A DNA stretch of 64,000 nt from Candidatus Harrisonbacteria bacterium (GTDB lineage: Bacteria > Patescibacteriota > Minisyncoccia > UBA6257 > 02-FULL-45-10c): positions 311,647 to 375,646 of the forward strand of contig JACPTS010000001.1 in the NCBI GenBank assembly GCA_016192685.1. Direction: 5' to 3'. A program made the translations under genes and the position numbers. This document shows positions 11,453 through 49,911 of the stretch, one piece after another; position 1 is the first letter of the stretch, and each line of letters begins with the position of its first letter. Under the pieces are notes generated by a model. It was not told where the DNA came from. It saw only the letters and a program-made list of their open reading frames with translations, and did no database searches.

Positions 11453-12820
11453 TCAAAAACTAAATACCCAAGAAAAAGCTGGCTGATAAATACTAGACTG
11501 CGTTGAACCAAATACCGGAGGAACTTTTATTTTCCAATAAGAATACTCCGCCTTCATTATAAAGTTATCGGCAATCTGCCAATTTAATCCGGCGGTATAT
11601 TTATTCATAAAAGTTTTCAGGTCTTGAGGCGAAGAAGCAAAGGCAGTTATTGGCAATTGATCGGCGGGATTTTTATTTTTGGAAAATACCAATTCCGGCC
11701 CAATCCGCTCCAATTTATTAAAAGCTAAAATTCCCAACACCTTTTTCCCGACTGGGGGATTTTTCCAAATTGGAAATGCCGCCTGAAGATAATAACCTTT
11801 ATTGATTTCGGTCTTGCTTGGCAAATAATCCGTCCGTTGAGCAAAATCCACTATTTTAATAGAATCCGCCTGGGCTTTTCTGAAATCATTTTTGCTATAA
11901 ACATATTCAACGGAAAAGCTGTAGTTTTTATATTGAAAAATCAAGTCAGTTCCGAAAATTTGATAATCTTGGCCGGCAATCGCTTCCTCAAGGTCATAAC
12001 GCCCATGCATTCCCGAAAGACCAAGGCGAATCCCGTTTAATTCAATTTTCTTTTCCTCAAAAATGGTCGGGATTTTCAAATCTCCTAAAGCAAAAACGAT
12101 TCTTCCCCCCGGCGCTTTATTATTGTTATTGTCGGCAAGATTATTATTCAGATGGCCAAAATCAATATCAGTTCCGCCAATGGCAACGCCCGGAACTAAA
12201 AGATTATTGCTATTTTGGAAAATTCTTATCCGATTCGGAGTTTCTCCCAAGCCATTTACTAAATAAGCAATAATTTCGGTCGGAATCCAAAAATGCCCGC
12301 TTTGTGGATAATAGCCGACTTTTAACCCGATGTCTGAATAGCCGGCGCTCATCGGCGGATGCGGAGAATTTAAGCGGGAAACAATATCCAAGCTGTCCGG
12401 TGAAGCATACAAAAGCGGGCGAGTAACGGTTAAAAACTGGTCCGGCCGGTAAAGCTCGTTGTAATGTCCGAAAGGAATCAAGAATTTTCCCAGTTCCAAT
12501 TTATATTTTTCCTCATATAAAAGCTCGGTGGAAAAACGATATAAATTTATTCGGCCCTGGGAAGCGGTAGGAATCTGAAATTCCAGCAAAAACGGAAATT
12601 TTCCGCTTATTTTCCCGTCAAAGCCGAAATACATATCCGCAAGATAAATTTCGTGCTGAACCGTATTTTCAAAGCCCTGCTTTTCCGGACCGATCATTCG
12701 CCAATTAAGCGACATCACGCCATTCACGTTCAAATCCCTTACCAATCCTTTAGCCCAAACAGCTGAAATCTTGAAAATCAAAACAGCGGTTAAAACCAAA
12801 ACTCCAATTATTTTTTTCAC
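11453..12820 (-). CDS. secreted beta-barrel (porin-like) outer-membrane protein
   Basis: 455 aa; N-terminal signal peptide MKKIIGVLVLTAVLIFKISAVWA; alternating amphipathic strands; C-terminal ...FSWVFSF (terminal aromatic). Confidence 0.5.
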   Translation of the reverse strand: MKKIIGVLVLTAVLIFKISAVWAKGLVRDLNVNGVMSLNWRMIGPEKQGFENTVQHEIYLADMYFGFDGKISGKFPFLLEFQIPTASQGRINLYRFSTELLYEEKYKLELGKFLIPFGHYNELYRPDQFLTVTRPLLYASPDSLDIVSRLNSPHPPMSAGYSDIGLKVGYYPQSGHFWIPTEIIAYLVNGLGETPNRIRIFQNSNNLLVPGVAIGGTDIDFGHLNNNLADNNNNKAPGGRIVFALGDLKIPTIFEEKKIELNGIRLGLSGMHGRYDLEEAIAGQDYQIFGTDLIFQYKNYSFSVEYVYSKNDFRKAQADSIKIVDFAQRTDYLPSKTEINKGYYLQAAFPIWKNPPVGKKVLGILAFNKLERIGPELVFSKNKNPADQLPITAFASSPQDLKTFMNKYTAGLNWQIADNFIMKAEYSYWKIKVPPVFGSTQSSIYQPAFSWVFSF

Positions 12821-12943
12821 TTACTGCCTCTTTTAAGATATGAATTTGCTGAATGTATATTACAAAAAATTTTATCTTCAGTCAACCCCAGTTATAGCCG
12901 ATTATCCTTTGGCGTGAAAATAAATTTCGTTTATAATAAAAGT

Positions 12944-23544: not shown

Positions 23545-25965
23545 ATGGCGAAAATAACTAAAATTTTAAAATTCGGCGGTTCTTCGGTAGGAACGCCAAA
23601 AATGATTAAAAAGGTTGGTGAGATTGTTAAAATTGCTTCCAAAAAAGATAGGGTGGCAGTGGTAGTTTCGGCATTTCAGGGGGTGACTGATCAGCTTTTA
23701 AAGTGCGCCAAGCTTGCTGCCCAAAATAATTCTAAATTAGAAATAGAATTGAAAAATTTAAAAAATCGTCATTTTCAAGCCATTCAGTTATTAGTTGAAA
23801 ATAAAAAGTTAAAAGGAGGAAGTTTAAATTATGCGGAAAATTTATTTAAAGAACTGCAATTTATTTTAGAAAAGATTGCTAAGGAGAAAATAGCTTCGCC
23901 AAAAAATTTAGATTGGGTCGCTAGTTTTGGCGAGCGGCTTTCCGCTTATATCATCGCGGCTTCTATAAAAAATGCTTATTTTGTTGATGCGAGAGAATTA
24001 GTAAAAACTAATAATAATTTTACCAAGGCCGCTGTTGATTTTGGAAAAACCAATCGTCGAATCAAAAATTTCTTTAAAAATAAAAAGGGGATTCCTATTA
24101 TAACTGGGTTTCTTGGTTCTACCGCGAAAGGCGAAACTATTACTTTGGGGCGAGGCGGGTCTGATTATACCGCCTCAATTTTTGGCGCAGCATTAGAAGT
24201 AAAAGTTATAGAAATTTGGACAGATGTGGATGGCGTGATGAGCGCCGATCCACGATTAGTCCGAAGCGCTCAAGTTTTACCAAAAATCAGTTACGAAGAA
24301 GCTGTAGAAATGGCTTATTTTGGAGCTAAAGTGATTCATCCGGCCACCATGCTTCCGGCAATTAAAAATGGCATTCCGATTTTGATTAAAAATACTTTTA
24401 ATCCAAAAGCGCTCGGAACTTTGATTCAGAAAGAATTAATACCGGCGCCGACGATTAAAGGAATAACCGCGATGGATGATATTTCGTTAGTTACGATTAG
24501 GGGTGTCAGTTTGGCAGGAATTCCCGGTAGCGCCGCCAGAGTTTTTAGCGCCACCGCCAAAGCCAAGGCAAATGTTATTTTAATTTCACAAGCCTCTTCC
24601 GAACACACTATTTGCTTTGCCGTTAAAACTAATGAGCTTCGGGCCGCGCTGGGAGGGTTAAAAAAGGAATTTCAAAAAGAAATAAAATACAGGCAAGTCG
24701 GTATAAATACTATTTTAAATCAATCCATTCTTGCCATGGTTGGCGATGGGATGCGCGGCGTCCCCGGTATCGCGGGGCGGCTTTTTAGCATGCTTGGTGA
24801 TAATGGAGTTAATGTAACTGCCATTGCCCAAGGCGGCTCCGAACGGAATATTTCTTTTGTGGTTGACGCTAAAAATAAAGTGAAGGCTTTAAATGTTGTT
24901 CATGGGGAATTTTTTGAAGGCGGCGTGAAAAATATCTTTCTAGCCGGAACCGGCAATATCGGCAGCGCCCTACTTAATCAAATTTATTCAATATTAAGGA
25001 CATCGGGTGTCCAAAGATTGAAAATACGCGGCATAATTGACGCTTTTAATATGATAATAAATGAGCGCGGGGTTAATTTAAGAAACTGGAAAAATAAATT
25101 AAAAAAAGCAGAAAAACCAAACTTTAATAAATGGCTAGAACAAACAAAATCTTTGCCATTGGGAAATAAAATTTTTGTAGATTGCACTGCCAGCGAAGCG
25201 GTGGCTAAAAAATATATTGAAATTGCGGAAGCCGGATTCCATATCGTGACGCCGAATAAGAAATTTAATGTTTTGCCGATGAAAGAATATCGGAAATTGC
25301 GTGAGGTAATGGTGAAAAATAAAAAGCAGTTTTTATACGAAACCAATGTCGGCGCCGCTTTGCCGATTATATCCACTTTGCGGGATTTGCTGAAAACCGG
25401 CGATAAAATTACCAAAATTGAAGGTATTTTTTCCGGAACTCTTAGTTTTATCTTTAATTCTTACGACGGCAGTCGGTCATTCAGTGAAGTGGTAGCGGAA
25501 GCGAAAAAACTTGGATACACAGAGCCGGATCCGCGCGAAGATTTAAACGGCAATGATGTTGGCAGAAAGCTTTTAGTGCTTGCGCGGGAAACTGGATTAG
25601 AAATGGAAATGAAAGACATAAAAATTGAGAATTTAGTTCCGCGCACACTGCTATCTCGCGGGATAGCACCGGAAGATTTTTTAAAGAGACTGGAAAAATA
25701 TGATGACTATTTTAAAAAATTATTAGAAAAAGCAAAATCTAAAAATAAAGTTCTCCGATATGTCGCCAAATTAGAAAAAGGAAAGGTGGCCGCGGGATTA
25801 CAAGAAATTTCTTTAGATAACCCGCTTGCCAATACCAGAGATGCTGACAATATTTTTGCTTTTTACACCAAGCGATATAATAAAAGGCCTTTGGTCGTTC
25901 AGGGTCCGGGAGCTGGACGGGAAGTAACTGCGGCTGGGGTGCTGGCGGATATTTTAAGAATATGA
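23545..25965 (+). CDS. thrA: bifunctional aspartokinase / homoserine dehydrogenase
   Basis: 806 aa; N-terminal amino-acid kinase domain (KFGGSSVG), two ACT domains, C-terminal NAD-binding homoserine dehydrogenase domain. Confidence 0.85.
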   Translation: MAKITKILKFGGSSVGTPKMIKKVGEIVKIASKKDRVAVVVSAFQGVTDQLLKCAKLAAQNNSKLEIELKNLKNRHFQAIQLLVENKKLKGGSLNYAENLFKELQFILEKIAKEKIASPKNLDWVASFGERLSAYIIAASIKNAYFVDARELVKTNNNFTKAAVDFGKTNRRIKNFFKNKKGIPIITGFLGSTAKGETITLGRGGSDYTASIFGAALEVKVIEIWTDVDGVMSADPRLVRSAQVLPKISYEEAVEMAYFGAKVIHPATMLPAIKNGIPILIKNTFNPKALGTLIQKELIPAPTIKGITAMDDISLVTIRGVSLAGIPGSAARVFSATAKAKANVILISQASSEHTICFAVKTNELRAALGGLKKEFQKEIKYRQVGINTILNQSILAMVGDGMRGVPGIAGRLFSMLGDNGVNVTAIAQGGSERNISFVVDAKNKVKALNVVHGEFFEGGVKNIFLAGTGNIGSALLNQIYSILRTSGVQRLKIRGIIDAFNMIINERGVNLRNWKNKLKKAEKPNFNKWLEQTKSLPLGNKIFVDCTASEAVAKKYIEIAEAGFHIVTPNKKFNVLPMKEYRKLREVMVKNKKQFLYETNVGAALPIISTLRDLLKTGDKITKIEGIFSGTLSFIFNSYDGSRSFSEVVAEAKKLGYTEPDPREDLNGNDVGRKLLVLARETGLEMEMKDIKIENLVPRTLLSRGIAPEDFLKRLEKYDDYFKKLLEKAKSKNKVLRYVAKLEKGKVAAGLQEISLDNPLANTRDADNIFAFYTKRYNKRPLVVQGPGAGREVTAAGVLADILRI

Positions 25966-27041
25966 AGAAAAGAGAGTTAAAAGTTAATAGTAAAAGGTTA
26001 AATGTTGGCATCTTGGGTGCCACTGGGATGGTTGGGCAGAGATTTGTGACGCTTTTGGAAAATCATCCGTGGTTTGAGGTGGTGAGTTTAGCGGCTTCGC
26101 CGCAATCGGCCGGGAAAACTTATGAGGAGGCAGTGTCTGGCCGTTGGGTTATGAAAAATTCAGTTCCAGAAAAATTACGCGGTTTAAAAATAAAAGTGGT
26201 TGAAGAAGATTTTGATGAAATTGTAAAAGAGGTGGACTTAGTATTTTCCGCTATTGATGCTGATAAAGAAAAAATCAAAGAAATTGAATTGCGATATGCC
26301 ACGGCTGGCGTGGCAGTAGTTTCCAATAATTCCGCGCATCGCTGGACCCAAGATGTGCCGATGATAATTCCCGAAATAAACGCGCATCATTTATCTTTAA
26401 TTGATATCCAGAAGAAAAATCGGGGTTGGGAAAAGGGGTTGCTCGTAGTGAAGCCAAATTGTTCTTTGCAGTCATATCTTCCAGTAGTATACGCGCTTAA
26501 AAAATTCGGCCCTAAAGAAGTTTTAGTTACGACTTTGCAGGCAATTTCCGGCGCCGGAAAAACTTTTGAATCGTGGCCGGAAATGCTGGATAACTGCATT
26601 CCTTTTATAAAAGGCGAGGAAGAAAAAACTGAAAAAGAACCGACAAAAATCTGGGGCGCGGGCTGTCCGGCTATTTCCGCCACCTGCATCCGTGTTCCAA
26701 TCTCGGATGGCCATATGGCAAGCGTTTCGGTAAAATTTGAAAATAAACCCTCGTTACAACAAATAAGAGATGCGATTGATAGTTTTCCAAATCCTTTGGC
26801 TAGCTTAGACTTACCGTCAGCTCCAAAAAAATTTATCAAATATTTTCTAGAAGATGATCGGCCGCAGACTAAATTAGATCGGGATTATGAAGGCGGCTTG
26901 GGCATTACTTGCGGGAGATTTCGCGAAGATGGAAATAATAGCTGGAAATTTGTTTCTCTTTCCCATAACACAATCCGTGGCGCTGCCGGCGGAGCGATTT
27001 TAATCGCCGAACTTTTGTATAAGAAAGGATATTTAAAATGA
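25962..27041 (+). CDS. asd: aspartate-semialdehyde dehydrogenase
   Basis: 359 aa; VGILGATGMVGQRF Rossmann N-terminus; active-site Cys context; overlaps the thrA stop. Confidence 0.85.
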   Translation: MKKRELKVNSKRLNVGILGATGMVGQRFVTLLENHPWFEVVSLAASPQSAGKTYEEAVSGRWVMKNSVPEKLRGLKIKVVEEDFDEIVKEVDLVFSAIDADKEKIKEIELRYATAGVAVVSNNSAHRWTQDVPMIIPEINAHHLSLIDIQKKNRGWEKGLLVVKPNCSLQSYLPVVYALKKFGPKEVLVTTLQAISGAGKTFESWPEMLDNCIPFIKGEEEKTEKEPTKIWGAGCPAISATCIRVPISDGHMASVSVKFENKPSLQQIRDAIDSFPNPLASLDLPSAPKKFIKYFLEDDRPQTKLDRDYEGGLGITCGRFREDGNNSWKFVSLSHNTIRGAAGGAILIAELLYKKGYLK

Positions 27042-27532
27042 AAGGAATTACTTTAATCGGAATGCCGGGATCGGGGAAATCTACTATCGGTAAATTACTT
27101 GCCAAAAAATTGGGGTGTAAATTTGTTGACTTGGATATCTTGATTAAAGAAAAAGAAAACCGCGGACATGAGGAAATTTTAGAAAAAGACGGCGGGGCGG
27201 AACTTTTGCGGCTGGAAAATTTGTATACTCTTGATTTGGATTTAGAAAATACCGTCTTTTCCCCCGGCGGAAGCATTGTTTATTCTTTGCCGGCAATGAG
27301 AAAACTCCAAAAAGAAACTAATATTATTTATTTAAAATTACCGCTTTTGGAAATAGAAAATCGTTTAGGCGGCAAAATTGATAGCCGGGGAATTGTTGGT
27401 TTTAAAGAAAAAGGGATTAAAAAGCTTTTTCGAGAACGGGATATTTTATATAAAAATTTTTCCCATAAAATCATTTCCTGTTTGGGATTAGATAAAGAAC
27501 AGCTTATTTATGAAATTTTACAGCACCAATAA
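27038..27532 (+). CDS. shikimate-kinase-family P-loop kinase embedded in the thr operon (candidate non-orthologous homoserine kinase)
   Basis: 164 aa; Walker A GMPGSGKST, FVDLD, SPGGSIV (SK-type GGG motif); overlaps asd stop and thrC start. Confidence 0.6.
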   Translation: MKGITLIGMPGSGKSTIGKLLAKKLGCKFVDLDILIKEKENRGHEEILEKDGGAELLRLENLYTLDLDLENTVFSPGGSIVYSLPAMRKLQKETNIIYLKLPLLEIENRLGGKIDSRGIVGFKEKGIKKLFRERDILYKNFSHKIISCLGLDKEQLIYEILQHQ

Positions 27533-28868
27533 CCCTCCTTCGCATAAAGCTACGGAAGGCAAGAAAATCCATTTCGTTGATTTTAGAACGGCACTGCTAC
27601 AAGGATTGGCTTTAGATGGCGGACTTTTTATGCCGGAAAGATTTCCAAAATTGAATAAGAAATTCTTAAAAGATATTTCTAAAAAGGAATTTTGGAAAAT
27701 CGCTCTGGAAATCAGCAAAGGTTTTATTAAAGATATTCCGGAAAGAGAATTAAAGAAGATGCTAAAAGACGCTTTTAATTTTGAAGTGCCGCTGAAAAAA
27801 ATAAACGAAAATTTATATATTTTAGAGCTTTGGCATGGGCCAACTTTGGCTTTCAAGGATTTTGGCGCGCGGTTTATGGCCCGGCTCATGAATTATTACC
27901 TGCGCCGCGAAAAGGAAAAATTAAACATTATTGTCGCTACTTCTGGGGACACCGGGAGTGCGGTGGCGCAAGGATTTTATGGATTATCTAACATAAAAGT
28001 TTTTGTTTTATATCCGAGTAAACGCATAACTGCGCTTCAAGAAAAACAAATGGCAACGCTCGGTAAAAACATTGTGTCATTGGAAGTAAAAGGAAATTTT
28101 GATGATTGCCAAAAACTTGCCAAACAAATATTGGCAGATAAAGATTTAAAAGAAAAAATAAATTTATCTTCAGCCAATTCTATAAATTTTGGAAGATTAC
28201 TTCCGCAATCCTTTTATTATTTTTACGGTTATGCCCAATTACTAAATAAGTTAAAAGTTAAAAGTGAAAAATTAAAAGTTATTTATTGTGTTCCCAGCGG
28301 GAATTTCGGCAATTTAACCGCCGGATTAATGGCGAAACAAATGGGTTTGCCCGTGAAACAATTTATCGCGGCGACGAATGCGAATGATATTGTTCCGCAA
28401 TATCTCAGAACCGGAAAATTTGTTTCACGCGTTTCGTGTAAAACAATTTCTAACGCCATGGATGTCGGCAATCCGAGCAATTTTGCGAGGATGCTGGAAA
28501 TGTTTCACGGCGATGTAAAACAAATGCGCCGCGAAATTATTGGTTTCGGTGTAAGTGACAAACAAACGCGTGAAACAATTAAAAATGTTTATCGTAAAAC
28601 CGGCTATATTTTAGATCCGCATACTGCGGTTGGAATTGCCGCGGCGCGCAAAAGCAATATTTTGCAACCGATTATCGTATTAAGCACCGCGCATCCTGCT
28701 AAATTCAGAGAAGCGGTGGAGCCGGTTATAAGCAAAAAGATTTCCTTGCCGCCGCAGCTCAAAAAAATTATTAATAAAGCCAAAAAGGCGACTTTGGTGG
28801 AAAATAATGTTGAGACGGTTAAGCGGATTATTTTAGAAAAATATGGACATATCAAAAAAACCGCCTGA
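27510..28868 (+). CDS. thrC: threonine synthase
   Basis: 452 aa; PLP-fold; FKDFGARFMA, ATSGDTGSA motifs. Confidence 0.85.
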   Translation: MKFYSTNNPPSHKATEGKKIHFVDFRTALLQGLALDGGLFMPERFPKLNKKFLKDISKKEFWKIALEISKGFIKDIPERELKKMLKDAFNFEVPLKKINENLYILELWHGPTLAFKDFGARFMARLMNYYLRREKEKLNIIVATSGDTGSAVAQGFYGLSNIKVFVLYPSKRITALQEKQMATLGKNIVSLEVKGNFDDCQKLAKQILADKDLKEKINLSSANSINFGRLLPQSFYYFYGYAQLLNKLKVKSEKLKVIYCVPSGNFGNLTAGLMAKQMGLPVKQFIAATNANDIVPQYLRTGKFVSRVSCKTISNAMDVGNPSNFARMLEMFHGDVKQMRREIIGFGVSDKQTRETIKNVYRKTGYILDPHTAVGIAAARKSNILQPIIVLSTAHPAKFREAVEPVISKKISLPPQLKKIINKAKKATLVENNVETVKRIILEKYGHIKKTA

Positions 28869-28885
28869 AAGCGGTTTAAAAATTT

Positions 28886-29197
28886 TTACTTAGAGCTCTT
28901 ACATAATGACATAATTCCTTCCTCCATCATTTTTTTGAGTTCGTCGGCATGCCACCGATTATCAGTAGTTGCCCATCCGTCAATCATTCGCGCCAGTATT
29001 GGCTCTTTTACATTTTTAATTTCGTAAGCCAATGCCTCCTTAATTTGTTTGGCAAGGTATTCCTTATTGCTCAAAATACAATTATATTGCCAAAACATTT
29101 CAACGCCAGCAGCGAATAATACTGATTTTTCTGTTTCCAGATACACATGCTTAACATAACCGCGCCAACCTTTAAAAGTAAGCCTATGCACTTTCAT
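28886..29197 (-). CDS. hypothetical protein
   Basis: 103 aa; shares a bidirectional terminator (accgc-ctgaaa-gcggt) with thrC at about 28858-28885. Confidence 0.4.
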   Translation of the reverse strand: MKVHRLTFKGWRGYVKHVYLETEKSVLFAAGVEMFWQYNCILSNKEYLAKQIKEALAYEIKNVKEPILARMIDGWATTDNRWHADELKKMMEEGIMSLCKSSK

Positions 29198-29329
29198 TGG
29201 CTGCTCTTTTATTTTTTAGAAATAACTATTAAGTAGATTAATAAGAAATTATTCCTAAGTCAAGTTCTGGAGTGGGTAACTAGAGTCGAACATTTATGAT
29301 ATACTAATATAGTATAATATAAGGTTTAT

Positions 29330-29992
29330 ATGCTGACAATAAGAAAAGAAAAATATCTTGCTATTAAATTACGCAAGCAAAATAAAAGCTATGATGAAAT
29401 TAATAAAATTCTTGGAATATCTAAGAGTACTTTAGCTGGGTGGCTTAAAAATGACCCCAGTTCTAAAAAAGCAAAATTATTTCTTAATAGCAAATCTAAC
29501 AAAAAGGTAGCTGAAAGAATTCAAAAATTTGTTGAAGAAAATAGAAAACGTCACGAGAATCGAAGAAAAGATATTCGAAATGAAGCAATAAAACAATTTG
29601 AGATCTTACAAAAAGATCATTTATTTATTGCTGGAACAATGCTCTATTGGGCAGAGGGCGATAATAAGCTAGGAAATCCATTTAGATTGACAAACACAGA
29701 TCCAAGAATGATATCTCTGTATATAAAATATTTGATAAAAATCCTTAATATTTCTGAAAAAGAAATACGACCAGCCATTATTCTTTACCCGGATTTATTA
29801 GAAAGGGAATGTATAAAATTTTGGTCAAAAATTACTGGAGTAAATTCTAGTCAATTTTACAAAACTCAATTCATCAAAGGGAAACATCCTACAAAAAGAT
29901 TATCTCACGGTATTTGCATGATAAATTGCAATAATAGACCTACAAAACAAAAAATATTGGCATGGATTGATTTATTGAGTAAAACCTTATAA
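29330..29992 (+). CDS. HTH-domain protein, possibly a degenerate LAGLIDADG-like fold
   Basis: 220 aa; N-terminal HTH (YDEINKILGISKSTLAGWLK); central FIAGTMLYWAEGDN weakly resembles a LAGLIDADG helix; next to tRNA-Gly. Confidence 0.35.
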   Translation: MLTIRKEKYLAIKLRKQNKSYDEINKILGISKSTLAGWLKNDPSSKKAKLFLNSKSNKKVAERIQKFVEENRKRHENRRKDIRNEAIKQFEILQKDHLFIAGTMLYWAEGDNKLGNPFRLTNTDPRMISLYIKYLIKILNISEKEIRPAIILYPDLLERECIKFWSKITGVNSSQFYKTQFIKGKHPTKRLSHGICMINCNNRPTKQKILAWIDLLSKTL

Positions 29993-30005
29993 AATAATTT
30001 ATATT

Positions 30006-30076
30006 GCGGGTATCGTATAGTGGTAATACGTCACCTTGCCAAGGTGAGGTCGCGGGTCCGATTCCCGCTACCCGCT
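30006..30076 (+). tRNA. tRNA-Gly(GCC)
   Basis: cloverleaf, anticodon loop uuGCCaa. Confidence 0.8.
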
Positions 30077-30084
30077 CAGTAAAA

Positions 30085-30118
30085 ATAAAAAACCGCACGT
30101 AAAGTGCGGTATTTATTT
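30085..30118. terminator. bidirectional intrinsic terminator
   Basis: accgcac-gtaaa-gtgcggt with A/T runs on both sides. Confidence 0.65.
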
Positions 30119-33100
30119 TACCAGTTGTAGCCGAGCCAGAAATTCCAGTCTTGCTTTCCGTATAATCCTTTACTGAATCTTGCATTCAGTCCGAGCGCAG
30201 TCGGGATATTTATGAAATATCCGGCGCTTTGCTCTAACTTCAATCCGCGATGCCCTTCAATAAACGGGGATGTTTTATCAAACCACATATCGCCAATATC
30301 ATGATATAACCCGCCGCGAATATCCAGATAAACGGTAAGCGGAGCAAACGCTTCACCAATTGGTCCGCTTATCACCGCGCCAGCCGCATTGAGAATCGGA
30401 AAACGCAATTCCGTGCTTTGCATGAGATAGCTGTTGCCCGCCTGACTGAATAACGGAATGCCTCGGAAAGTTTGATTGCCGCCCCAGATGAAAATAGTGG
30501 AATTGGGGCCGAAACTTCGGCCGCCAACCGCGCGCAATGCCAAACCGGCTCGCTCAGCGAGCGGCAAATGATATCGGGCATCCGCGTTTATTTCAATAGT
30601 TTGGAATCCTTTCTTGTGGTCAAAACCAATTTCGGTTCCGGTAAAAACCGCGGCTCCGGAATGCGGGCCGTGGCAATACCATTGATTGGCTTGGCAGTCC
30701 CAGATAGTGGTGTCTAAACTCAAGCTGGTGCCGAGCTTGGAACGCCACCATTGTACCGTGCCGGAATCCCGTTCATTTCTCACCGTTTGTTCTTTGAGGG
30801 TAACATCCCAATTGAGGAATTCATGCAGGAAGATATTTTGCGAAACGCCGACATCCATTTTATGGCGCCGGCCGTCAAAATTCCAATAGTCAAGCAGATA
30901 AGATCTGCCGGTATGCAAATTGTAATACTGGATATCCGCAAACCCCTGATTGCTGTTTTGGAGGTAAACATTGGCTGCCAATAATCGGTCATTAATTTCA
31001 TCAAGGGCCATTCCTTGCAGAGCCAGATAGCTGTTGATGCCGCCGCCGCCGAAAATAACGCCGCCAACGCCTTGAGCCTGCATTATTCTGGGCAACTTCA
31101 ATAAATTTCGGTATCGCTTTGGAATGCCGGATTTGGTATTCCATTGCCTAGCGGGAACCGCTGTTTGTTTTGAATTAACGCCGTAAGAAGAATAAACAAT
31201 CAAGTACGGAGAATTTTCGTCATTAGTTTCCATCAGGCCGCTTCCGTATACCCTTATGTTTCTATCCAGACCATAGGCATTGCCGACGGTTAAAAAGAGA
31301 GTATCATTTTTTAATTCAGCTTTTTTGACTAGCGGGATTCCGGAAGCAACCGGTGTCAGGCTGCTGGAAGCGGTGTCAAACAGAAAAATATCCAAACCAG
31401 TTTCTTTCTGCGGAACAATAAGGAATATTTTCGCTCCGTTCAGAAGCGGGTACCAGGCGATTTGTTTTTCCACCTTGACGTTCTCGGGAAAAATTTTATC
31501 CCAAGTTTTATCGGTTTCGGTGGTTACATCAAGTTCGCTGATGCTGGCATTCCATTTTTTATCCAATACCAGAATTTTGGTTTCCGATACAAAAGCCGCG
31601 TCTTGTATTTCATAGAATTCTTTACGGAATTTCTTTTTTTCTTTGCCTATTGCGTCGTAAAGAATAATTTTTGTGCGGCTCTTATCAGCCCAAATGAAAT
31701 AACGCTGGTCCGGAGACAACTTGGACAGGAAACGATTGCTTCCGGAAGATTCAGACGTGATTTCCGTATCTAGGTCATGGATTTTACCCTCCAGCCAATC
31801 GTAGATATAAGATTCTTTGTATATCACTTCTTCTTCCGGGTTTTGGGCATCGGTAATTTCGCTGTTTTTTTCAATGCTTATCATCCGCCTTTGCAATAAG
31901 GCGTTGGTTCCCGCAAGTAAAGAAATGCCGCCGTAATGTTTCATCTTTTTGAATTCATCAAGAGTGAATTGGATTGCCGTTCCAGTGGAAGAATCTGTGA
32001 GCCAGAAGCGCATTTCCGTATCGCCGCTCTTGAGAACTTCCATTGATAATTTTCTGTTTTCAACAAATAGCGCCCTGGTTTTATCTGAAGACAATGCTAC
32101 GTCAAAAATCGTCTTAGATTCCGCATCGGGAATTTTTTCACGCAGGCGCCGCACTTCAGGCCTATCCCATATTGAATCAGTGGAATGGCTGGAAGTGTTC
32201 GCAGTTACGGATGTTGAAATTGAGATTGTTTGGGGAAAAGGAGCGGTTTTTACCGACATTTCTCCTCGGGAAATAAAATTGAACGCCAATCCGCCATCGC
32301 CAAACCATTGGGGCCTAAAGATGCCGATTTTCGCGTCAGTCAATACTTCGTCAACGCGCGTGAAAAGATTGTAGCGGTGAATATTATGCGCCAATCCTTT
32401 ATCGCTGATATACAGCAAGTGGGCGCCATCAGAGGAACAAGCCGCGTAAAATTCGCTTTCCGGCGTTTGGGTTAAAAATGTAAATGTTCCGGCCGCAAGA
32501 TCGTAGAGCGCCAAGTCGTAAGAATTATTAACTTCGTTTTCAACGGAGGTAATAAGCGCGTTGCGCATTTTTGAGTAAGCCAGGCCGCGATAAGTTCGTT
32601 GGGTTGAAGTCAATTGTTTTACGGTTCCGGAACTAATATCGGCCAAAAAAAGTTCGGCGAATACGCCGTCGGCTCTGCCGACAAACGCCGCTTCTCGGTC
32701 ATTCAATATAATAGGATGCCGCATTTCGCGTATGCCATTGAATTGATGCTTAGATTTTTTGCCAAGATGAAATTTCTTTTTGTCTTTATCAAATGAAAAC
32801 TGCTGGATGACAAGCGCGTCTTGGCCGCCGACATCTATGGCGTAAGCCAGCGTTGCGCTGGAAGCAAATGACGCGCCGTGTTCCTGAAAGCCGAATTCCG
32901 GAGAAAGCTCCACTTCAAATCCTCTGACATCAACGCTTTTTAATCGGCCGCCTTCAACTAATTTTTTGGATTTTACAGCTGTGCCGTCAGTCCAGTTGAG
33001 AAACAGCGTTTCCCGGCCGTAAACTTCTTTTTTGGTGATGAAGAATTGATCGCGAGCGGCCAGAAGTGTTCCGTCGCCAATTGATATTGCTTCATCGGCA

Positions 33101-34017
33101 ATATCGGTTTTTATCCGAAGAGGCGAGTAGCGCTGTTCAATGTGCCGCCAGAGTTTTTTATCAAATTCTTCCAGGGTGTCACCGGTTGCCTTTTTAAAAG
33201 CTTTGGCGAATTTCATTTCTGCGCTGGCTTTAAGAATGGCGCTGATAACATCGCCTTTTTCTTTATAATGAGCGGCCATAAAGTGGAGAATGAATTCTCC
33301 TTCTTTATAGACCAAGCTGGTGTACCAGGGGCTCCATTTACTGATTCTCGCGAGATAGCCGTTAAGATAAGCGTCTCGCATAACCAGCTCTCCGCGCGGA
33401 TCCCATTCGTGGGCCATATGTTCAGCTGACCCCTCTATGAACCAGAGAGGCAAATCGCGGAACATAAAGTTCATCAGCGTAAGCCGAAGAAATTCGCCTT
33501 GATATCTGTGAGTCAATTCATGTCTTAATAGCCTTTGGAATCCTCGCGGTGAATCGCGGAAGGCGATAACTACGCGTTTCCATTTAATCATCTCGGTTTC
33601 GCCGCCCAATCCCTTGGGCACCAATCCCCAGATAATATTTGCCTCTTCGAAATCGCGGGAAGAATTGAAAATCACGATGCGGATTTTCTCCGCAAAATGA
33701 TTCATGTTCATTTTCTCGCTGAATTCCTTATAGGTTGCTTCGGCGTTTTCAAGATAGAGAGCCGCCAGTTGTTCGCTGTTGCCGTAAGTGTAAATTTGAA
33801 AGTGCGGAGATTCCAGCACTTTCCAATCGTATTTGCCGTAACGCGGTTTATTTTTGTGGAGATGGCCGTTGGGCAAAAAATCCACGTATTTGAAGTCAAT
33901 TTCCGGAAAAATATATCTCTCTAATGTTTCCAGTGTGTCAGCATAGCTTTGAGTTTTGAAACTAAGCGAAGCAATAAGAATTGCAGACAAAAACAGCAAT
34001 TTCTGTTTTAGCTTCAT
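30118..34017 (-). CDS. giant outer-membrane protein: signal peptide + zincin-like HExxH domain + TolB-like beta-propeller + C-terminal Omp85/BamA-like barrel
   Basis: about 1300 aa from ATG 34017 (MKLKQKLLFLSAILIASLSF); HELTHR...E motif; PD40-like repeats; C-terminus GGNQTFRGIP...ELRFPIL...GHRGLKLEQSAGYFINIP...NFWLGYNW resembles the Omp85 barrel. ORF-track start 34080 lies inside the promoter. Confidence 0.55.
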   Translation of the reverse strand: MKLKQKLLFLSAILIASLSFKTQSYADTLETLERYIFPEIDFKYVDFLPNGHLHKNKPRYGKYDWKVLESPHFQIYTYGNSEQLAALYLENAEATYKEFSEKMNMNHFAEKIRIVIFNSSRDFEEANIIWGLVPKGLGGETEMIKWKRVVIAFRDSPRGFQRLLRHELTHRYQGEFLRLTLMNFMFRDLPLWFIEGSAEHMAHEWDPRGELVMRDAYLNGYLARISKWSPWYTSLVYKEGEFILHFMAAHYKEKGDVISAILKASAEMKFAKAFKKATGDTLEEFDKKLWRHIEQRYSPLRIKTDIADEAISIGDGTLLAARDQFFITKKEVYGRETLFLNWTDGTAVKSKKLVEGGRLKSVDVRGFEVELSPEFGFQEHGASFASSATLAYAIDVGGQDALVIQQFSFDKDKKKFHLGKKSKHQFNGIREMRHPIILNDREAAFVGRADGVFAELFLADISSGTVKQLTSTQRTYRGLAYSKMRNALITSVENEVNNSYDLALYDLAAGTFTFLTQTPESEFYAACSSDGAHLLYISDKGLAHNIHRYNLFTRVDEVLTDAKIGIFRPQWFGDGGLAFNFISRGEMSVKTAPFPQTISISTSVTANTSSHSTDSIWDRPEVRRLREKIPDAESKTIFDVALSSDKTRALFVENRKLSMEVLKSGDTEMRFWLTDSSTGTAIQFTLDEFKKMKHYGGISLLAGTNALLQRRMISIEKNSEITDAQNPEEEVIYKESYIYDWLEGKIHDLDTEITSESSGSNRFLSKLSPDQRYFIWADKSRTKIILYDAIGKEKKKFRKEFYEIQDAAFVSETKILVLDKKWNASISELDVTTETDKTWDKIFPENVKVEKQIAWYPLLNGAKIFLIVPQKETGLDIFLFDTASSSLTPVASGIPLVKKAELKNDTLFLTVGNAYGLDRNIRVYGSGLMETNDENSPYLIVYSSYGVNSKQTAVPARQWNTKSGIPKRYRNLLKLPRIMQAQGVGGVIFGGGGINSYLALQGMALDEINDRLLAANVYLQNSNQGFADIQYYNLHTGRSYLLDYWNFDGRRHKMDVGVSQNIFLHEFLNWDVTLKEQTVRNERDSGTVQWWRSKLGTSLSLDTTIWDCQANQWYCHGPHSGAAVFTGTEIGFDHKKGFQTIEINADARYHLPLAERAGLALRAVGGRSFGPNSTIFIWGGNQTFRGIPLFSQAGNSYLMQSTELRFPILNAAGAVISGPIGEAFAPLTVYLDIRGGLYHDIGDMWFDKTSPFIEGHRGLKLEQSAGYFINIPTALGLNARFSKGLYGKQDWNFWLGYNW

Positions 34018-34056
34018 GATTATTTTCTTTATTTGGATATCAATGAATCTGAATAG

Positions 34057-34085
34057 ATTGTACGGAAAAATAGCGGACAAGTCAA
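34057..34085 (-). promoter_or_regulatory. sigma70-type promoter of the giant OMP gene
   Basis: minus strand TTGACT - 17 nt - TACAAT. Confidence 0.5.
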
Positions 34086-34159
34086 AGCGCTGTTTTCCTT
34101 GCTCTTTTTTGGGGTTGCGCTTACTATTTTAATAGATTGCCTTTGAAAATTAATTAGAG

Positions 34160-34699
34160 ATGAACATACATGATTTTTTTGCGTCCCTGAAAGGTAATGG
34201 CCAGGAATTGTTAAACGGGTTAGATGAGCTTAGGAAGCGCCTGGGATTGGAAAGGCTTTATTTAATTTATGCCAATGAGCAAGAAATAGTGTGGGGAACT
34301 CGCGGCACAGAGGTTGATTATGAAAATGTCGCTCGAGAACTTTTGAAATTTGTTCAGGAACATACCGGCCTGAATTATGATACGGAAATGACTAGACTGG
34401 TGGTCTTTGGAAATGAGATGGCAGAAGTGGATTATGTGCTAAATAAGGAATTGATACCTTATATTGAGAGCCATGAAGGCCGCTTGGAAATAGTGTCTAT
34501 CAGTGAAAATACCGGAGAAATTGTTGTTTCTTTGCGCGGAGCTTGCGGCACTTGTCCAAGCGCGATTTTTACCATGAAAGCTGGAATTGAACGAACTTTA
34601 AAAAGCCTCTTGCCTTGGGTGAAGACGGTAAAATCATTTGATAAGCCGGAAGAGCCGGATGAAAAAAATGACTTTCGGGATTACGGGGGCGAAGGATGA
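34160..34699 (+). CDS. NifU/Nfu-like Fe-S cluster scaffold domain protein
   Basis: 179 aa; C-terminal GACGTCPSA CxxC motif of the Nfu/NifU C-terminal domain. Confidence 0.6.
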   Translation: MNIHDFFASLKGNGQELLNGLDELRKRLGLERLYLIYANEQEIVWGTRGTEVDYENVARELLKFVQEHTGLNYDTEMTRLVVFGNEMAEVDYVLNKELIPYIESHEGRLEIVSISENTGEIVVSLRGACGTCPSAIFTMKAGIERTLKSLLPWVKTVKSFDKPEEPDEKNDFRDYGGEG

Positions 34700-34778
34700 C
34701 GCCCCATTTTTTTACTTGACTAAATAATTAAAATCGCCTACGCTTATAAAAGTTTCTTGAATTATCAAATCAAGCAGA

Positions 34779-35459
34779 ATGGCCTCCAAGAGACAGCTGA
34801 TTCTTCTAACTTATGCCCTGATATTCAATTTTGCTTTTCCCAACCGGGTTTCGGGACAAAATACCAAACTTTCCGTAGAAACGGCTTTTGGCAACTACCA
34901 ATTTCCAGGAGCATTTCTCAGAGTAGACAAGTCATTGGTTACGACACCGGATAATTTTGAGGGAAGCATCCGGGAAGTCCGAATCGCTTATGCTTTATTT
35001 GAATCTTGGTCAATTGGACTGCAATTATTCAAGGTGGAAGCTGACGGCTATGGCCAATGGGCCAGATCTGACACTTCGGAAATTCTTGCCGCCAATAATG
35101 TCGCTGGGACAATCAGCGGCCGGACTGATTGGGATATGAAAGGAGCCGCGGTTGATTTTGAATTCCAGCCTAAGAAATTTTGGAAAAATAAAGTTATTCC
35201 TTATCTTCGGTCCGGAGTGGGTGTCGCGGAACTGGCCGTAACTTTCAATGGCCAATTTGATGGTCATGAAACTTTCAGCGGCTTCAATTTTCCCGTAAAT
35301 GAGCCGGCGGTAGATAGGGTAATCACTCAGATACCGATTGTAACTTCGGAACTCGGTTGCCACTTCCGCCTGACAAATAAGCTTTTGGTTTCCGGTTCTT
35401 ACTATTGGAATATGGGCGGCCATGGCCCGAAAGGAGCTTTAATTTTGGAATTATTTTAA
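34779..35459 (+). CDS. small outer-membrane beta-barrel protein (OmpW/OmpA-like)
   Basis: 226 aa; signal peptide; alternating beta-strand pattern; C-terminal ...LILELF. Confidence 0.5.
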   Translation: MASKRQLILLTYALIFNFAFPNRVSGQNTKLSVETAFGNYQFPGAFLRVDKSLVTTPDNFEGSIREVRIAYALFESWSIGLQLFKVEADGYGQWARSDTSEILAANNVAGTISGRTDWDMKGAAVDFEFQPKKFWKNKVIPYLRSGVGVAELAVTFNGQFDGHETFSGFNFPVNEPAVDRVITQIPIVTSELGCHFRLTNKLLVSGSYYWNMGGHGPKGALILELF

Positions 35460-36325: not shown

Positions 36326-36417
36326 TCCTATATTTAATTTTTTTTGTTCTATAAGAACTTTAAATCAAATGGCTATTTTTTGTCAATCAATTCTTTGATT
36401 TTTTTGATATAAAGCTG

Positions 36418-36490
36418 TGGGTCAGGATGGAATCGGACCATCGATCCCCAAGGTATAAGCTTGGTGCTTTAACCGCTAAGCTACTGACCC
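36418..36490 (-). tRNA. tRNA-Ile(TAT), unusual anticodon
   Basis: anticodon loop cuUAUac with perfect stems; T-loop UCCGAUU (C55) is atypical. Confidence 0.65.
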
Positions 36491-37316: not shown

Positions 37317-37889
37317 CTAATTTAATGACCCCTTTTTAATTACCCTAAAAATATGTATATAAGAAGTTAATTCGAGTTTTTCTATATCAAATAAAAAATC
37401 TTCTGGAATTTTATATTCTCCCGCCCACACACTTTTTTGCAGCATTTCAAATGCTAATAATTTTAATTGTTTTCTTAACCATATTCTTTTATATTTTAAT
37501 CTTTCCGGTATGTCAAAAATTATAAGATTTAAAGCACTATCTTTATGGGGTGCGTATAATCTTTTCGGAAAATAAGCAGTTTTGAATATTTTAATTTTTT
37601 CTAATTTTTGTATACCGTTTTTAGTAATTTGCCAATGCGATAACCCTTTTATTTTTTGTTTTTTTATAAAACCCTGTTTTTTAAGACGAGAAAGTAGGGC
37701 GAAAAAGCTTTTTTCTTGTAATCTTTCAATCTGTTTTTTATTTAGTTTTTCAGGATAAGTATAACCGTGCATTACTCGGCGCATTGCCTTGTAAGTTTTT
37801 TGATATCCAGGAATAATGTCGTCTATAAGTTCGGCGGTAACTAAAACTTTATGGCGCAATTTTTTTAATATAATTTCTGTTTGGGTCAT
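37317..37889 (-). CDS. hypothetical protein bracketed by two 32-bp palindromes
   Basis: 190 aa, Lys-rich, possible N-terminal winged-helix; no identifiable catalytic motif. Confidence 0.45.
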   Translation of the reverse strand: MTQTEIILKKLRHKVLVTAELIDDIIPGYQKTYKAMRRVMHGYTYPEKLNKKQIERLQEKSFFALLSRLKKQGFIKKQKIKGLSHWQITKNGIQKLEKIKIFKTAYFPKRLYAPHKDSALNLIIFDIPERLKYKRIWLRKQLKLLAFEMLQKSVWAGEYKIPEDFLFDIEKLELTSYIHIFRVIKKGSLN

Positions 37890-48600: not shown

Positions 48601-49911
48601 ATGAACTTTTCTCGTTCCCAGCTTGTTATTCTTGGTTCAGTGCTTTTTATTGTTCTTCTTTTGGTTGGCATTTTTACCGGAGTTTTGCCGGGTACCCGCC
48701 AACTCCGGGAAAAACCGCCGGAATTGACTCTGGCTGTCTGGGGAATTGATGAACAAGAATTATTTTTGGAAAATATCAATGCTTACGAAACTCTTCGGCC
48801 GAATGTCCGGGTGGATTACGAAGAATTGGACCCGGCCACTTATGAAGAGAGGATTATTAACGCGCTGGCTGCTGGCGCCGGGCCGGATATTATAATGTTC
48901 CATAATTCCTGGCTGCCGAAACACTATAATAAAATCGTGCCGGTTGGCGACACCCAGCTTAACCTTAAAACCCTGAAAGAAATCTTTCCGGCTGTTGTGG
49001 AACAAGATTTCGCGCCAGACGGGAAAATCCGGGCGCTTCCATTATATATAGATACCCTGGCGTTGTTTTATAATCAGGATACTTTTGATAAAAACGGCAT
49101 TGCTGTTCCGCCAAAAGACTGGCTGGATTTTCAGAATCTTTTGCCGAAATTGCGCGAACGCGACGGTTCCGGCCGAATCACTAAAGCCGGAGCGGCCATC
49201 GGCGGCTCCGAAAAAACCATTGCCAAGTCCGCGGATTTGCTGATGCTTCTGATGCTTCAAGCCGGCGCCAAAATGACCGATGATGGATTTAGCCAAGCTA
49301 CTTTTGCCAGCAATGTCGGCGGCCAACTGCCCGGCATTGACGCTTTAAATTTTTACGCCAAATTCAGCGATCCCCGGGATAATTATTACACCTGGAATGA
49401 TGGCTTGGAATATTCCCTGGACAGTTTTTCGCGCGGCAACGCGACAATGATTTTCCATTACGCGAGAGAACGGAAAAATATTAAAAGTAAAAATCCTTTC
49501 CTCAATTTTAAAACCGCGGAAATGCCTCAGCCGACCGGCGCGGAAAAAGCCGTTAATTACCCGGATTACTGGGGATTGGCGGTTACCAATAACAGCAAAA
49601 ATCCGGACTGGGCCTGGGATTTGATTCTTTATTTGACCGCCAATGATGCCGCCGCGGAAACTTATTTAAAAACTGCTGACCGGCCGCCGGCGCTCCGTTC
49701 TTTAATCCAAAAATACGCTAACCATCCGGAACTCGGCGCTTTTACCAAGCAAGCGCTTTCCGCCCGTTCCTGGCCGCAAATTGATAAAGATGCCATCCGG
49801 CTGATTTTTTCCGATATGATTCAGGCGGTAATCAGCGGCCAGTTGGATTCCCAGGCCGCCGCGGCGCAGGCAGAACGGCAAGTAACCGAATTAATGAAAT
49901 CTCGCCGGTAA
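48601..49911 (+). CDS. ABC-transporter extracellular solute-binding protein (family 1, sugar-type)
   Basis: 436 aa; N-terminal TM anchor; SBP_bac_1-like sequence. Confidence 0.6.
   Translation: MNFSRSQLVILGSVLFIVLLLVGIFTGVLPGTRQLREKPPELTLAVWGIDEQELFLENINAYETLRPNVRVDYEELDPATYEERIINALAAGAGPDIIMFHNSWLPKHYNKIVPVGDTQLNLKTLKEIFPAVVEQDFAPDGKIRALPLYIDTLALFYNQDTFDKNGIAVPPKDWLDFQNLLPKLRERDGSGRITKAGAAIGGSEKTIAKSADLLMLLMLQAGAKMTDDGFSQATFASNVGGQLPGIDALNFYAKFSDPRDNYYTWNDGLEYSLDSFSRGNATMIFHYARERKNIKSKNPFLNFKTAEMPQPTGAEKAVNYPDYWGLAVTNNSKNPDWAWDLILYLTANDAAAETYLKTADRPPALRSLIQKYANHPELGAFTKQALSARSWPQIDKDAIRLIFSDMIQAVISGQLDSQAAAAQAERQVTELMKSRR

Follow-up and report, generated by a model that had tools for sequence, protein, structure and literature searches.

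The stretch of DNA considered here, 64,000 nucleotides of a 608-kb contig (JACPTS010000001.1) from the assembly GCA_016192685.1 of a Candidatus Harrisonbacteria bacterium, and referred to below as the window, carries on its minus strand a gene for a large secreted protein, here called protein X. Read from its N-terminus, the product is predicted to consist of a Sec-type signal peptide, a zinc peptidase domain, two β-propellers and a C-terminal transmembrane β-barrel of the Omp85 type. The open frame runs without interruption over 30118..34080 and is TTG-initiated at its longest. Of its two possible starts, the ATG at 34017, which had also been chosen in a preliminary description of the window, is the better, because it results in a classical signal peptide and because the best sigma70-like site falls within the TTG extension. 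From this ATG the coding sequence (30118..34017, minus strand) specifies 1299 amino acids, in keeping with the ~1300 first described there, and ~145 kDa. An exact copy is present in GenBank as MBI3046260.1, under the name ‘MAG: collagenase [Candidatus Harrisonbacteria bacterium]’, where MAG denotes a metagenome-assembled genome.

The candidate promoter TTGACT-17-TACAAT (34057..34085, minus strand), a consensus match only, lies upstream of the ATG and is the top consensus match in 29900..34800, agreeing at 10 of 12 positions. A bidirectional hairpin with a T-run, a putative terminator and likewise a consensus match only, stands immediately 3' of the stop codon (30092..30110, minus strand). With a promoter-like site upstream and the hairpin and T-run after the stop, the gene looks like a self-contained transcription unit beginning at 34017. 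GC content is uniform over the region.

Domain architecture and family of protein X

The C-terminal region of protein X (aa 977-1299; 30121..31089, minus strand) is predicted to form an Omp85-type transmembrane β-barrel of ~16 strands with no POTRA domain before it. The protein was modelled with AlphaFold2 (AF2) as two overlapping pieces from family alignments; in the piece covering aa 600-1299, which has a predicted local distance difference test (pLDDT) value of 75 and a predicted template modelling score (pTM) of 0.49, residues 977-1299 form ~16 long antiparallel strands. The fold matches of this C-terminal piece include BamA of Neisseria (score 13.9), Deinococcus (13.8) and Fusobacterium (13.6), TamA of Pseudomonas (13.4), CdiB (13.4) and FhaC (11.9), and an independent Foldseek search also returned BamA and TamA barrels (E 5e-8 to 2e-6). 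As modelled, the domain has the fold of a 16-stranded Omp85 barrel.

Two hallmark motifs can be recognised in it by alignment. The first, WGGNQTFRGI (30457..30486, minus strand), corresponds to the Omp85 loop-6 motif of the ‘(V/I)RG(F/Y)’ type, with G1179, G1180, N1181, R1185 and G1186 invariant; GGNQTFRGIP occupies aa 1179-1188 and the nearby ELRFPIL aa 1203-1209. It aligns with ‘GGvnSiRGY’ of relatives that bear the Pfam Omp85 domain PF01103 and is in register with ‘GGSSTVRGF’ of Escherichia coli BamA, in an alignment that is not significant by itself; where the motif has F or Y, RG is here followed by I, V, M or T. The second, YHDIGDMW (30283..30306, minus strand; Y1238, D1240, G1242 and W1245 invariant), corresponds to the β-13 ‘(F/G)xDxG’ motif, aligning with ‘FaDlGaaW’ of the relatives and in register with ‘FWDMGTVW’ of E. 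coli BamA. R1205, P1207 and W1294 are further barrel positions that are invariant in 25 homologues. In the AF2 model the RG motif lies in the extended loop that follows strand 11, and strand 13 carries the DxG motif; both have the same positions in BamA. The chain ends in ...FWLGYNW, a G-x-x-aromatic ending shared with BamA of Fusobacterium nucleatum (...FNMGQSF) and with the consensus of the relatives.

Homology to Omp85 proteins can also be traced through intermediates. BLASTP aligns aa 1082-1273 of protein X with the Pfam-called Omp85 segment of P0036, a relative of ~1000 aa, at E 3e-10, and in a comparison by hhalign the barrel profile of the X family matches that of the PF01103-bearing relatives over 143 columns (99.4% probability, E 2e-21). 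The latter profile in turn matches solved structures of BamA and TamA at values from 3e-20 to 1e-5, among them BamA of F. nucleatum (2.9e-20), TamA (1e-9) and BamA of E. coli (~1e-8). One of 20 members of the X family matches PF01103 directly, at 1.3e-6.

Several results weigh against the assignment. Protein X itself has no PF01103 match at E <= 10, and 19 of the 20 family members have none either; Pfam and NCBIfam find no POTRA domain in it, and the model has only a linker between the second propeller and the barrel. Searched against PDB sequences, the X-family barrel profile gave a chance match only, and its hhalign alignment with the single E. coli BamA sequence, with the motifs in register, is not significant. 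The barrel model also has stretches with pLDDT <50, loop 6 included, besides its pTM of 0.49. Because the transitive profile chain, the aligned hallmark motifs, the fold and the one direct PF01103 match all lead to the same family, we nevertheless conclude that protein X, though divergent and without POTRA domains, truly belongs to the Omp85 superfamily. The one to five N-terminal POTRA domains of a canonical BamA are absent from it.

At its other end, protein X begins with a Sec-type signal peptide (aa 1-26, MKLKQKLLFLSAILIASLSFKTQSYA; 33940..34017, minus strand), read from the sequence and without a lipobox cysteine; cleavage is predicted directly after MKLKQKLLFLSAILIASLSFKTQSYA, before DT, and a hydrophobic N-terminal signal is present in all homologues. 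It is followed by a gluzincin peptidase domain (MA clan, M9/Peptidase_MA_2-like; aa ~62-310; 33088..33834, minus strand), which is indicated by Pfam, profile searches and an AF2 model with a pLDDT of 82.7. The sole Pfam match of protein X falls here (Peptidase_M9, PF01752, aa 90-252), and its 28.5 bits are just marginally over the cutoff of 26, a narrow margin that counts against the functional reading; NCBIfam gives flagellinolysin-HExxH and TolB-propeller signals, both weak. A profile of the domain matches solved M9 collagenases at E values from 2e-6 to 3e-4, including 7wss (2e-6), 7esi (3e-5), ColT (5e-5), ColG (~2e-4) and also ColH, and relatives of protein X match Peptidase_MA_2 (PF13485).

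In these alignments the HELTH zinc-binding and catalytic motif (aa 166-170; 33508..33522, minus strand) pairs with HEYVH of the collagenases, and WFIEGSAEH with their WWSEGVAEY; E195 (33433..33435, minus strand), within ‘LWFIEGSAEH’, is therefore the likely third zinc ligand. All 25 full-length homologues have H166, E167, H170 and E195, and these four residues stay invariant when distant relatives are included. The alignments thus place in protein X the HExxH motif and downstream glutamate ligand of the MA-clan gluzincins, in a conserved helical core, and since the catalytic set is invariant even among distant relatives the peptidase is probably active. The HExxH...EGxAE(Y/H) core is also all that it shares with the M9 collagenases (ColG, ColH, ColT and those of Vibrio): the match is confined to ~120-190 residues (profile positions 100-243), and no activator, PKD or collagen-binding domain is present in protein X, the remainder of which consists of propellers and barrel. 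Because only the catalytic core matches, and nothing supports a collagen substrate in a groundwater bacterium of the Candidate Phyla Radiation (CPR), the database name ‘collagenase’ is misleading and should not be taken literally.

Between peptidase and barrel lie two predicted six-bladed propellers. Propeller 1 (aa ~311-593; 32239..33087, minus strand) is TolB-like and in the model packs against the peptidase domain. Propeller 2 (aa ~637-933; 31219..32109, minus strand), with 24 strands at pLDDT mostly 80-92, is joined to the barrel by a disordered linker of ~40 residues and is, on AF2 and BLASTP evidence, an insertion relative to the ~1000-aa proteins of diderms: aa 55-597 and 1082-1273 of protein X align with P0036, and nothing in the segment between them does. 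Whole-protein phmmer against the PDB gave weak TolB matches only, and the NCBIfam TolB model scores 16 bits against a cutoff of 343. The resemblance to TolB covers the propeller only; the N-terminal alpha/beta domain of TolB is absent from protein X, and no tol or pal genes lie in the 64-kb window. Tricorn, DPP-IV and prolyl oligopeptidase differ in using serine catalysis, as against the metallo-type site of protein X.

The preliminary description, made from the sequence alone, had proposed a signal peptide, a HExxH zincin-like domain, a TolB-like propeller and a POTRA-less Omp85-like barrel. All four are borne out, the first by the sequence and its homologues, the second by the Pfam M9 match, the profile matches and the invariant residues, the third by fold and profile comparison, and the barrel by structure prediction, fold search and profile comparison. 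The motifs it picked out (HELTH, GGNQTFRGIP, ELRFPIL and the terminal NFWLGYNW) are all present and conserved. Its ‘repeat regions’ do contain propeller repeats, among which a distinct second six-bladed propeller had been lumped. The Omp85 HMM match that it named as a check did not appear on protein X itself, a result overridden by the family member at 1.3e-6, the transitive profiles and the fold.

Homology searches returned 25 further full-length relatives of ~1290 aa, with 30-64% identity to protein X in the search and 31-65% among the aligned homologues, and a second, large set of ~1000 aa in which precomputed Pfam data show Peptidase_MA_2, a PD40/Tricorn-type propeller and Omp85. A re-scan of P0036, from the second set, placed Peptidase_MA_2 at residues 85-273, four PD40 repeats, and Omp85 at 854-1019 (E 5e-14); aa 55-597 of protein X align with it by BLASTP at 25% identity (E 2e-33). 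A neighbour-joining tree built on the N-terminal 620 residues groups the 26 CPR-type sequences in a single monophyletic clade, with P0027 (1520 aa), which has a non-CPR-looking gene context and offers no functional clue, as its sister. In one MAG, ‘bacterium isolate C24_metabat.bin.189’ (locus L003), two paralogues stand in tandem at 129-3992 and 4127-8032, each ~39-40% identical to the protein of the window.

Heinz & Lithgow (2014, PMC4104836) recognised ten subfamilies within the Omp85/TpsB superfamily, of which ‘WD40-Omp85’ has a TolB-like propeller in place of the POTRA domains and was likened by them to a BamA-BamB fusion; the description given there covers the WD40 part, and the peptidase domain goes unmentioned in it. 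By its sequence, protein X, with a TolB-like propeller in place of POTRA domains on an Omp85 barrel, fits this subfamily. Members are known in databases as ‘Tol biopolymer transport system component’, ‘tolB protein precursor’ or ‘PD40 domain-containing protein’, occur in Bacteroidota, Gemmatimonadota and MAGs, and share with protein X the order of signal peptide, Peptidase_MA_2-type HExxH domain, TolB/PD40 propeller and POTRA-less barrel; no experimental characterisation of any of them was found in the literature searched. The CPR proteins differ in being ~280 aa longer, with the second propeller between propeller 1 and the barrel, in forming a clade of their own whose barrels have diverged past the Pfam Omp85 model in 19 of 20 members, and in belonging to hosts of a phylum regarded as monoderm. 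Protein X is accordingly a WD40-Omp85 variant set apart by its additional propeller, its highly diverged barrel and its occurrence in a CPR bacterium. The ‘Metallo-Omp85’ subfamily was considered for it and rejected, as this carries PF00149 and not a HExxH peptidase (PMC4104836).

Host genome and companion barrel genes

The window encodes the housekeeping proteins PNPase, a short IF-2, Ddl, NusA, H+-PPase, trigger factor, ClpP, TyrRS, GyrA, LeuRS, RecG and FtsH, as well as a type IV secretion system (T4SS) pilin (PF18895), PrsW and a LAGLIDADG open reading frame (ORF). The best 120 matches of its GyrA show 68-90% identity, and the names among them are Harrisonbacteria, Parcubacteria, Pacebacteria, Wolfebacteria, Paceibacterota, Minisyncoccota, ‘Patescibacteria group’ or plain ‘[bacterium]’. 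These genes and matches uphold the earlier impression of a reduced, candidate-phylum-like genome; the host is a genuine member of the Patescibacteria, and the gene for protein X is native to it.

The X family comprises 26 clusters, and a scan of GTDB species representatives found it in six MAGs, labelled Harrisonbacteria, Paceibacter, ‘Saccharibacteria’ and ‘Patescibacteria group’, the other two being just ‘bacterium’. Its members are linked to housekeeping genes in seven related loci (L001, L002, L004, L007, L008, L011 and L019), and synteny is found in at least eight independent assemblies (NCBI, JGI, ENA and Logan). One of these loci (L004) has NifU, Ddl, the threonine operon and TyrRS in common with the window, two (L011 and L019) have TyrRS, ClpP, trigger factor, H+-PPase and NusA, and in three others (L001, L007 and L008) the gene follows an S13-S11-S4-RpoA-L17-L13-S9 block, MurA, MreB, HolB and RRF. 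Within one CPR clade the gene is kept by purifying selection, with other barrel genes beside it. Two of the last-named loci (L007, JBFOMZ010000044, 283 kb; L008, JBFOMZ010000080, 206 kb) come from a single assembly, GCA_040961635.1, and have the same gene order with different homologues of protein X (P0014 and P0017), so that this assembly probably combines sequence from two related strains or species.

These linkages bear on whether the finding is an artefact, either of contaminating diderm sequence that was mis-assembled or mis-binned or of a C-terminal domain that is in fact soluble and β-rich. The record is indeed a MAG, protein X has no Pfam Omp85 match, and the relatives of the window's porin-like protein (see below) are from Elusimicrobia. 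Set against this, the gene lies in a 608-kb contig with CPR housekeeping genes on both sides, and fold, motifs and profile chain all favour Omp85. Because the linkage to CPR housekeeping genes recurs in those independent assemblies and GC content is even, mis-assembly or mis-binning is very unlikely; the artefact explanation as a whole is largely refuted, and we give it hardly any weight.

Protein X is not the only candidate barrel of the window. A simple, crude screen of all ORFs of >= 110 aa in the window, which required a signal peptide and an aromatic C-terminus and allowed no transmembrane helix, picks exactly three: protein X, 11453..12820 and 34779..35459. The latter two had been singled out in the preliminary description by their C-termini typical of outer-membrane proteins (OMPs), and this holds up, the first being porin-like and the second of the OMP_b-brl family. 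The porin-like protein (11453..12820, minus strand; HYY86_01705; 455 aa, ending ...SWVFSF) is recognised by its homologues and by Porin_O_P, which scores 19.6 bits on it against a cutoff of 20.9; homologues carry PF07396. Its closest homologues are 55-88% identical, and two of them (55-69%) lie in CPR contigs syntenic with the window, beside the same 716-aa secreted protein, NusA, H+-PPase, trigger factor, ClpP and TyrRS. This 716-aa protein (12914-15064, plus strand), repeat-rich and without a Pfam match, is encoded divergently from the porin-like gene, and the pair is kept at 62% identity in the loci L013 and L014; the secreted protein could form part of a surface layer or act together with the porin.

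The small OMP-type barrel (34779..35459, plus strand; HYY86_01805; 226 aa, ending ...LILELF) belongs to a family with 39 representatives among 1.84 billion, in which signal peptide and terminal Phe are conserved and 15 of 32 members match PF13505 (OMP_b-brl), at best at 3.2e-6. Named members come from Harrisonbacteria (UniRef ‘Outer membrane protein beta-barrel domain-containing protein’) and Paceibacterota; against the PDB, the family profile found a designed barrel only (E 0.3). Between this gene and that for protein X lies the divergent neighbour of the latter, which encodes a NifU-domain protein (34160..34699, plus strand; context only). Its adjacency to the X gene is kept in L002, L004 and L019, and the whole three-gene arrangement recurs in L019. 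In L007 a 202-aa OMP-like ORF follows the X gene, with no detectable similarity to the 226-aa barrel of the window. Other possible companions were rejected: a 157-aa ORF before the gene in L004, L006 and L011, considered as Skp-like, has two transmembrane helices, and 221-aa and 441-aa ORFs in L011, considered as OMPs, look cytoplasmic. The 157-aa ORF stands directly upstream of the X gene in L006 and L011 and upstream of the NifU-X pair in L002 and L004; in the window a 157-aa ORF (8982-9455, plus strand), likewise with two transmembrane helices and matched by no Pfam family, is 21 kb distant from the X gene.

The nearest named relatives of the porin-like protein are dozens of Elusimicrobia proteins with 44-53% identity, a hint of old gene exchange between Elusimicrobia and this CPR clade and perhaps of an ecological association of the two. 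In one alternative explanation the cell is monoderm and the Omp85-type protein, porin and small barrel, all horizontally acquired, are secreted to act on the outer membrane of a diderm host (e.g. Elusimicrobia-like) at the attachment site. The similarity of the porin to those many Elusimicrobia proteins fits acquisition from a diderm, protein X is confined to a small monophyletic CPR clade (the 26 clusters in six GTDB species), CPR bacteria are considered monoderm, and the window also encodes a membrane-tethered solute-binding protein, a monoderm trait. No known mechanism, however, would allow a cell to insert Omp85 or porin barrels from outside into the outer membrane of another, and the ordinary Sec signals and classical C-terminal β-signals of all three proteins imply assembly machinery of the cell's own, while stable housekeeping synteny and divergence down to 31% identity within the clade speak for a long-term native function. 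We regard deployment on a host as quite unlikely, and tentatively prefer a native role for protein X in a second membrane of its own cell, as set out in the next section.

Some further features of the window concern the genome in general. A tRNA-Ile gene (36417-36490, minus strand) has the anticodon TAT (UAU). In most bacteria AUA is read by a lysidine-modified CAU tRNA, and since this tRNA-Ile carries UAU instead, TilS-independent decoding of AUA is suggested. A threonine-biosynthesis operon (23545-28868, plus strand), unusual for a reduced CPR genome, encodes an aspartokinase-homoserine dehydrogenase fusion, aspartate-semialdehyde dehydrogenase, a 164-aa ORF of the shikimate-kinase family (27038-27532) and threonine synthase. 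The 164-aa ORF occupies the place expected for thrB (homoserine kinase), as does a 53% identical counterpart in L004, and judged by family and place it may be a non-orthologous homoserine kinase. The LAGLIDADG ORF mentioned above is a free-standing endonuclease (10514-10972, minus strand) in a low-GC patch (0.34), and a second such patch (0.335), at 28000-30000, contains an HTH_23 protein (29330-29992) adjoining a tRNA-Gly gene. No rRNA lies near either patch, and both may be remnants of mobile elements. Finally, a 190-aa protein (37317-37889, minus strand) combines a PadR-like winged helix with the central ‘Cas2-like’ domain of PaaX; neither a CRISPR array nor cas genes were noticed in the window.

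Gene position and a possible role in the envelope

Considering what protein X might do, a first clue is the position of its relatives on other chromosomes. In the closest non-CPR relatives examined (L015 and L016), which encode the ~1000-aa Peptidase_MA_2-PD40-Omp85 type at 8001-11060 and 8001-11216, respectively, and whose proteins have <= 33% identity to named relatives by BLAST, the order is rpsB-tsf-pyrH-frr-fdx-uppS-cdsA-dxr-rseP-(small ORF)-X-pcrA-gatCAB. The order in E. coli K-12 is rpsB-tsf-pyrH-frr-dxr-ispU-cdsA-rseP-bamA-skp-lpxD..., and by this comparison the relative of protein X therefore occupies the bamA slot. Three CPR loci (L001, L007 and L008) have the order frr-X-rseP. Together these gene orders suggest that the gene for protein X descends from, or replaced, the gene of the bamA slot. 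The likeness to BamA (E. coli b0177) comprises the gene slot after rseP, filled by relatives of protein X where bamA stands in E. coli, the loop-6 RG and β-13 DxG motifs in register and the C-terminal ...G-x-x-W strand, whereas protein X lacks POTRA domains and a significant direct sequence match, and skp-lpxD-fabZ-lpxA-lpxB are absent downstream. TamA, in comparison, has three POTRA domains and a partner, TamB, neither of which is seen here.

On this basis we tentatively favour, at somewhat less than an even chance, a reading in which protein X is a barrel of a second, outer-membrane-like layer and a one-chain analogue of BamA, BamB and BepA for barrel assembly and quality control. Its barrel would be embedded in the outer-membrane-like lipid layer of the Harrisonbacteria-lineage cell, and the N-terminal modules would face the inter-membrane space, as the POTRA domains of other Omp85 proteins do. 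There the propellers might capture unfolded, exported or extended polypeptides, and the peptidase might cleave those bound to them; the barrel would then stand for BamA, the propeller for BamB and the zinc protease for BepA. Such a protein could serve the assembly and quality control of the few barrel proteins of the lineage, including the porin-like and OmpA/OmpX-like barrels of the window. In E. coli, BepA is a zinc protease that docks on the β-barrel assembly machinery (BAM) for quality control (PMC13478230). The analogy with BamB and BepA would be one of function, in that a zinc protease and a propeller are placed at the periplasmic face of an Omp85 barrel, all in one chain in protein X; by descent they differ, BepA being an M48 protease with tetratricopeptide repeats and BamB an eight-bladed lipoprotein, without homology to the modules of protein X.

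Several observations count against this reading. Patescibacteria are described as having no outer membrane and a T4SS of monoderm type (PMC12102498), and CPR bacteria have been placed with Chloroflexota and Dormibacterota in a monoderm clade from which the outer membrane was lost (PMC12102498; Witwinowski et al. preprint). Within the 64-kb window no Lpt, Lol, Lpx, lipopolysaccharide, Skp, SurA, TolC or POTRA genes were found, and no skp or lpx genes accompany the gene for protein X at any locus inspected. A solute-binding protein of the SBP_bac_1 family (48601-49911, plus strand) lacks a lipobox, and its N-terminal transmembrane helix looks uncleaved; this tether is of monoderm or archaeal style, odd beside barrel genes. 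In the window itself the gene adjoins nifU, not frr or rseP. Linkage of frr and rseP occurs in monoderms too, as in Bacillus subtilis (frr-uppS-cdsA-dxr-rasP), so that the positional argument is suggestive only. No report of Omp85, BamA, β-barrel or outer-membrane proteins in CPR, Patescibacteria, Parcubacteria or Harrisonbacteria was found in the literature searched.

A diderm-like envelope in the lineage is nevertheless plausible, and the cells may have a second membrane. The diderm envelope implied in the preliminary description is not established, given the tethered solute-binding protein and the genes missing from the 64 kb. Of its further suggestion, a non-canonical BamA, the gene position is in favour and there is no other basis for a BamA role; its alternative, a surface-exposed protease, is neither borne out nor contradicted. 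What had been observed in the sequence is thus confirmed as correct, well beyond chance, and what was made of it is partly supported. A bolder version, which we consider doubtful, is that a small Parcubacteria clade (the Harrisonbacteria/Paceibacter lineage) is truly diderm, with an outer membrane containing the porin, OmpA/OmpX-like barrels and protein X, the last being the sole Omp85, a one-chain BAM that would unite insertase, BamB-like scaffold and BepA-like quality-control protease, and the positional descendant of the gene in the bamA slot of the frr-rseP cluster. Were this so, outer-membrane loss was incomplete at the base of the CPR/Chloroflexota/Dormibacterota clade, or the toolkit was re-acquired by transfer.

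Protein X can also be accounted for in other ways. One is that protein X is a plain anchored peptidase of the periplasm or cell wall, its barrel an anchor only, and that barrels are inserted by a separate canonical BamA. Non-BamA subfamilies of Omp85 do accompany BamA in the diderms surveyed by Heinz & Lithgow (PMC4104836), missing POTRA domains argue against BamA-type handling of substrates, and the tandem paralogues of locus L003 are more typical of accessory than of essential genes. Redundant Omp85 proteins are, however, unlikely in a 0.6-Mb genome, relatives of protein X stand in the bamA slot in L015 and L016, and no POTRA gene was seen in the ~200 kb of related CPR loci inspected, so that a mere anchor appears to us distinctly improbable.

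A second is that protein X exports itself, in a type-V-like manner, as a surface protease. The parallel is PlpD (type Vd, patatin-Omp85), in which an N-terminal enzyme is likewise joined to a C-terminal Omp85-type barrel, an option that has been raised for enzyme-Omp85 fusions (PMC4104836); the barrel would serve as pore and anchor for the N-terminal passenger, and protease and propellers would digest environmental or host-surface proteins, feeding an amino-acid-dependent epibiont. The collagenase-like peptidase, from a family of secreted proteases, is in line with this, as is the account of CPR bacteria as nutrient-scavenging epibionts (PMC12102498). PlpD differs, though: its passenger is a patatin whose export has been demonstrated, and it has a POTRA domain, whereas protein X is without the POTRA that type Vd and TpsB systems employ; a passenger of ~950 aa with two rigid propellers would be unusual cargo, and the barrels of BamA and TamA are closed to the outside (PMC4104836). 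The position by frr and rseP, in the bamA slot, points moreover to envelope biogenesis and not to nutrition. A surface protease is in our view rather unlikely, and a one-chain assembly and quality-control factor is retained as the tentative preference.

What is unexpected is the occurrence of an Omp85-type protein together with porin-like and OmpA/OmpX-like barrels in a lineage assumed to be monoderm, by which its envelope type becomes a testable question. A bona fide Parcubacteria genome contains three classes of outer-membrane-type barrel (Omp85-type, porin-like and OMP_b-brl), stably inherited, and this stands against the monoderm account. If the barrels sit in a second membrane, the lineage would be an exception to the monoderm rule and a minimal system, of ~0.6 Mb, for the smallest outer-membrane assembly machinery, and it would date or complicate the loss of the outer membrane in this region of the tree. 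If there is no second membrane, a monoderm epibiont that uses Omp85 and porin barrels would represent a new kind of host-interaction device. Whatever the envelope, the WD40-Omp85 subfamily carries a conserved and apparently active zinc peptidase domain, and the presence of a gene of this type in the bamA slot of some bacteria provides a functional hypothesis for the subfamily, namely that its members may take part in BAM-like assembly or quality control.

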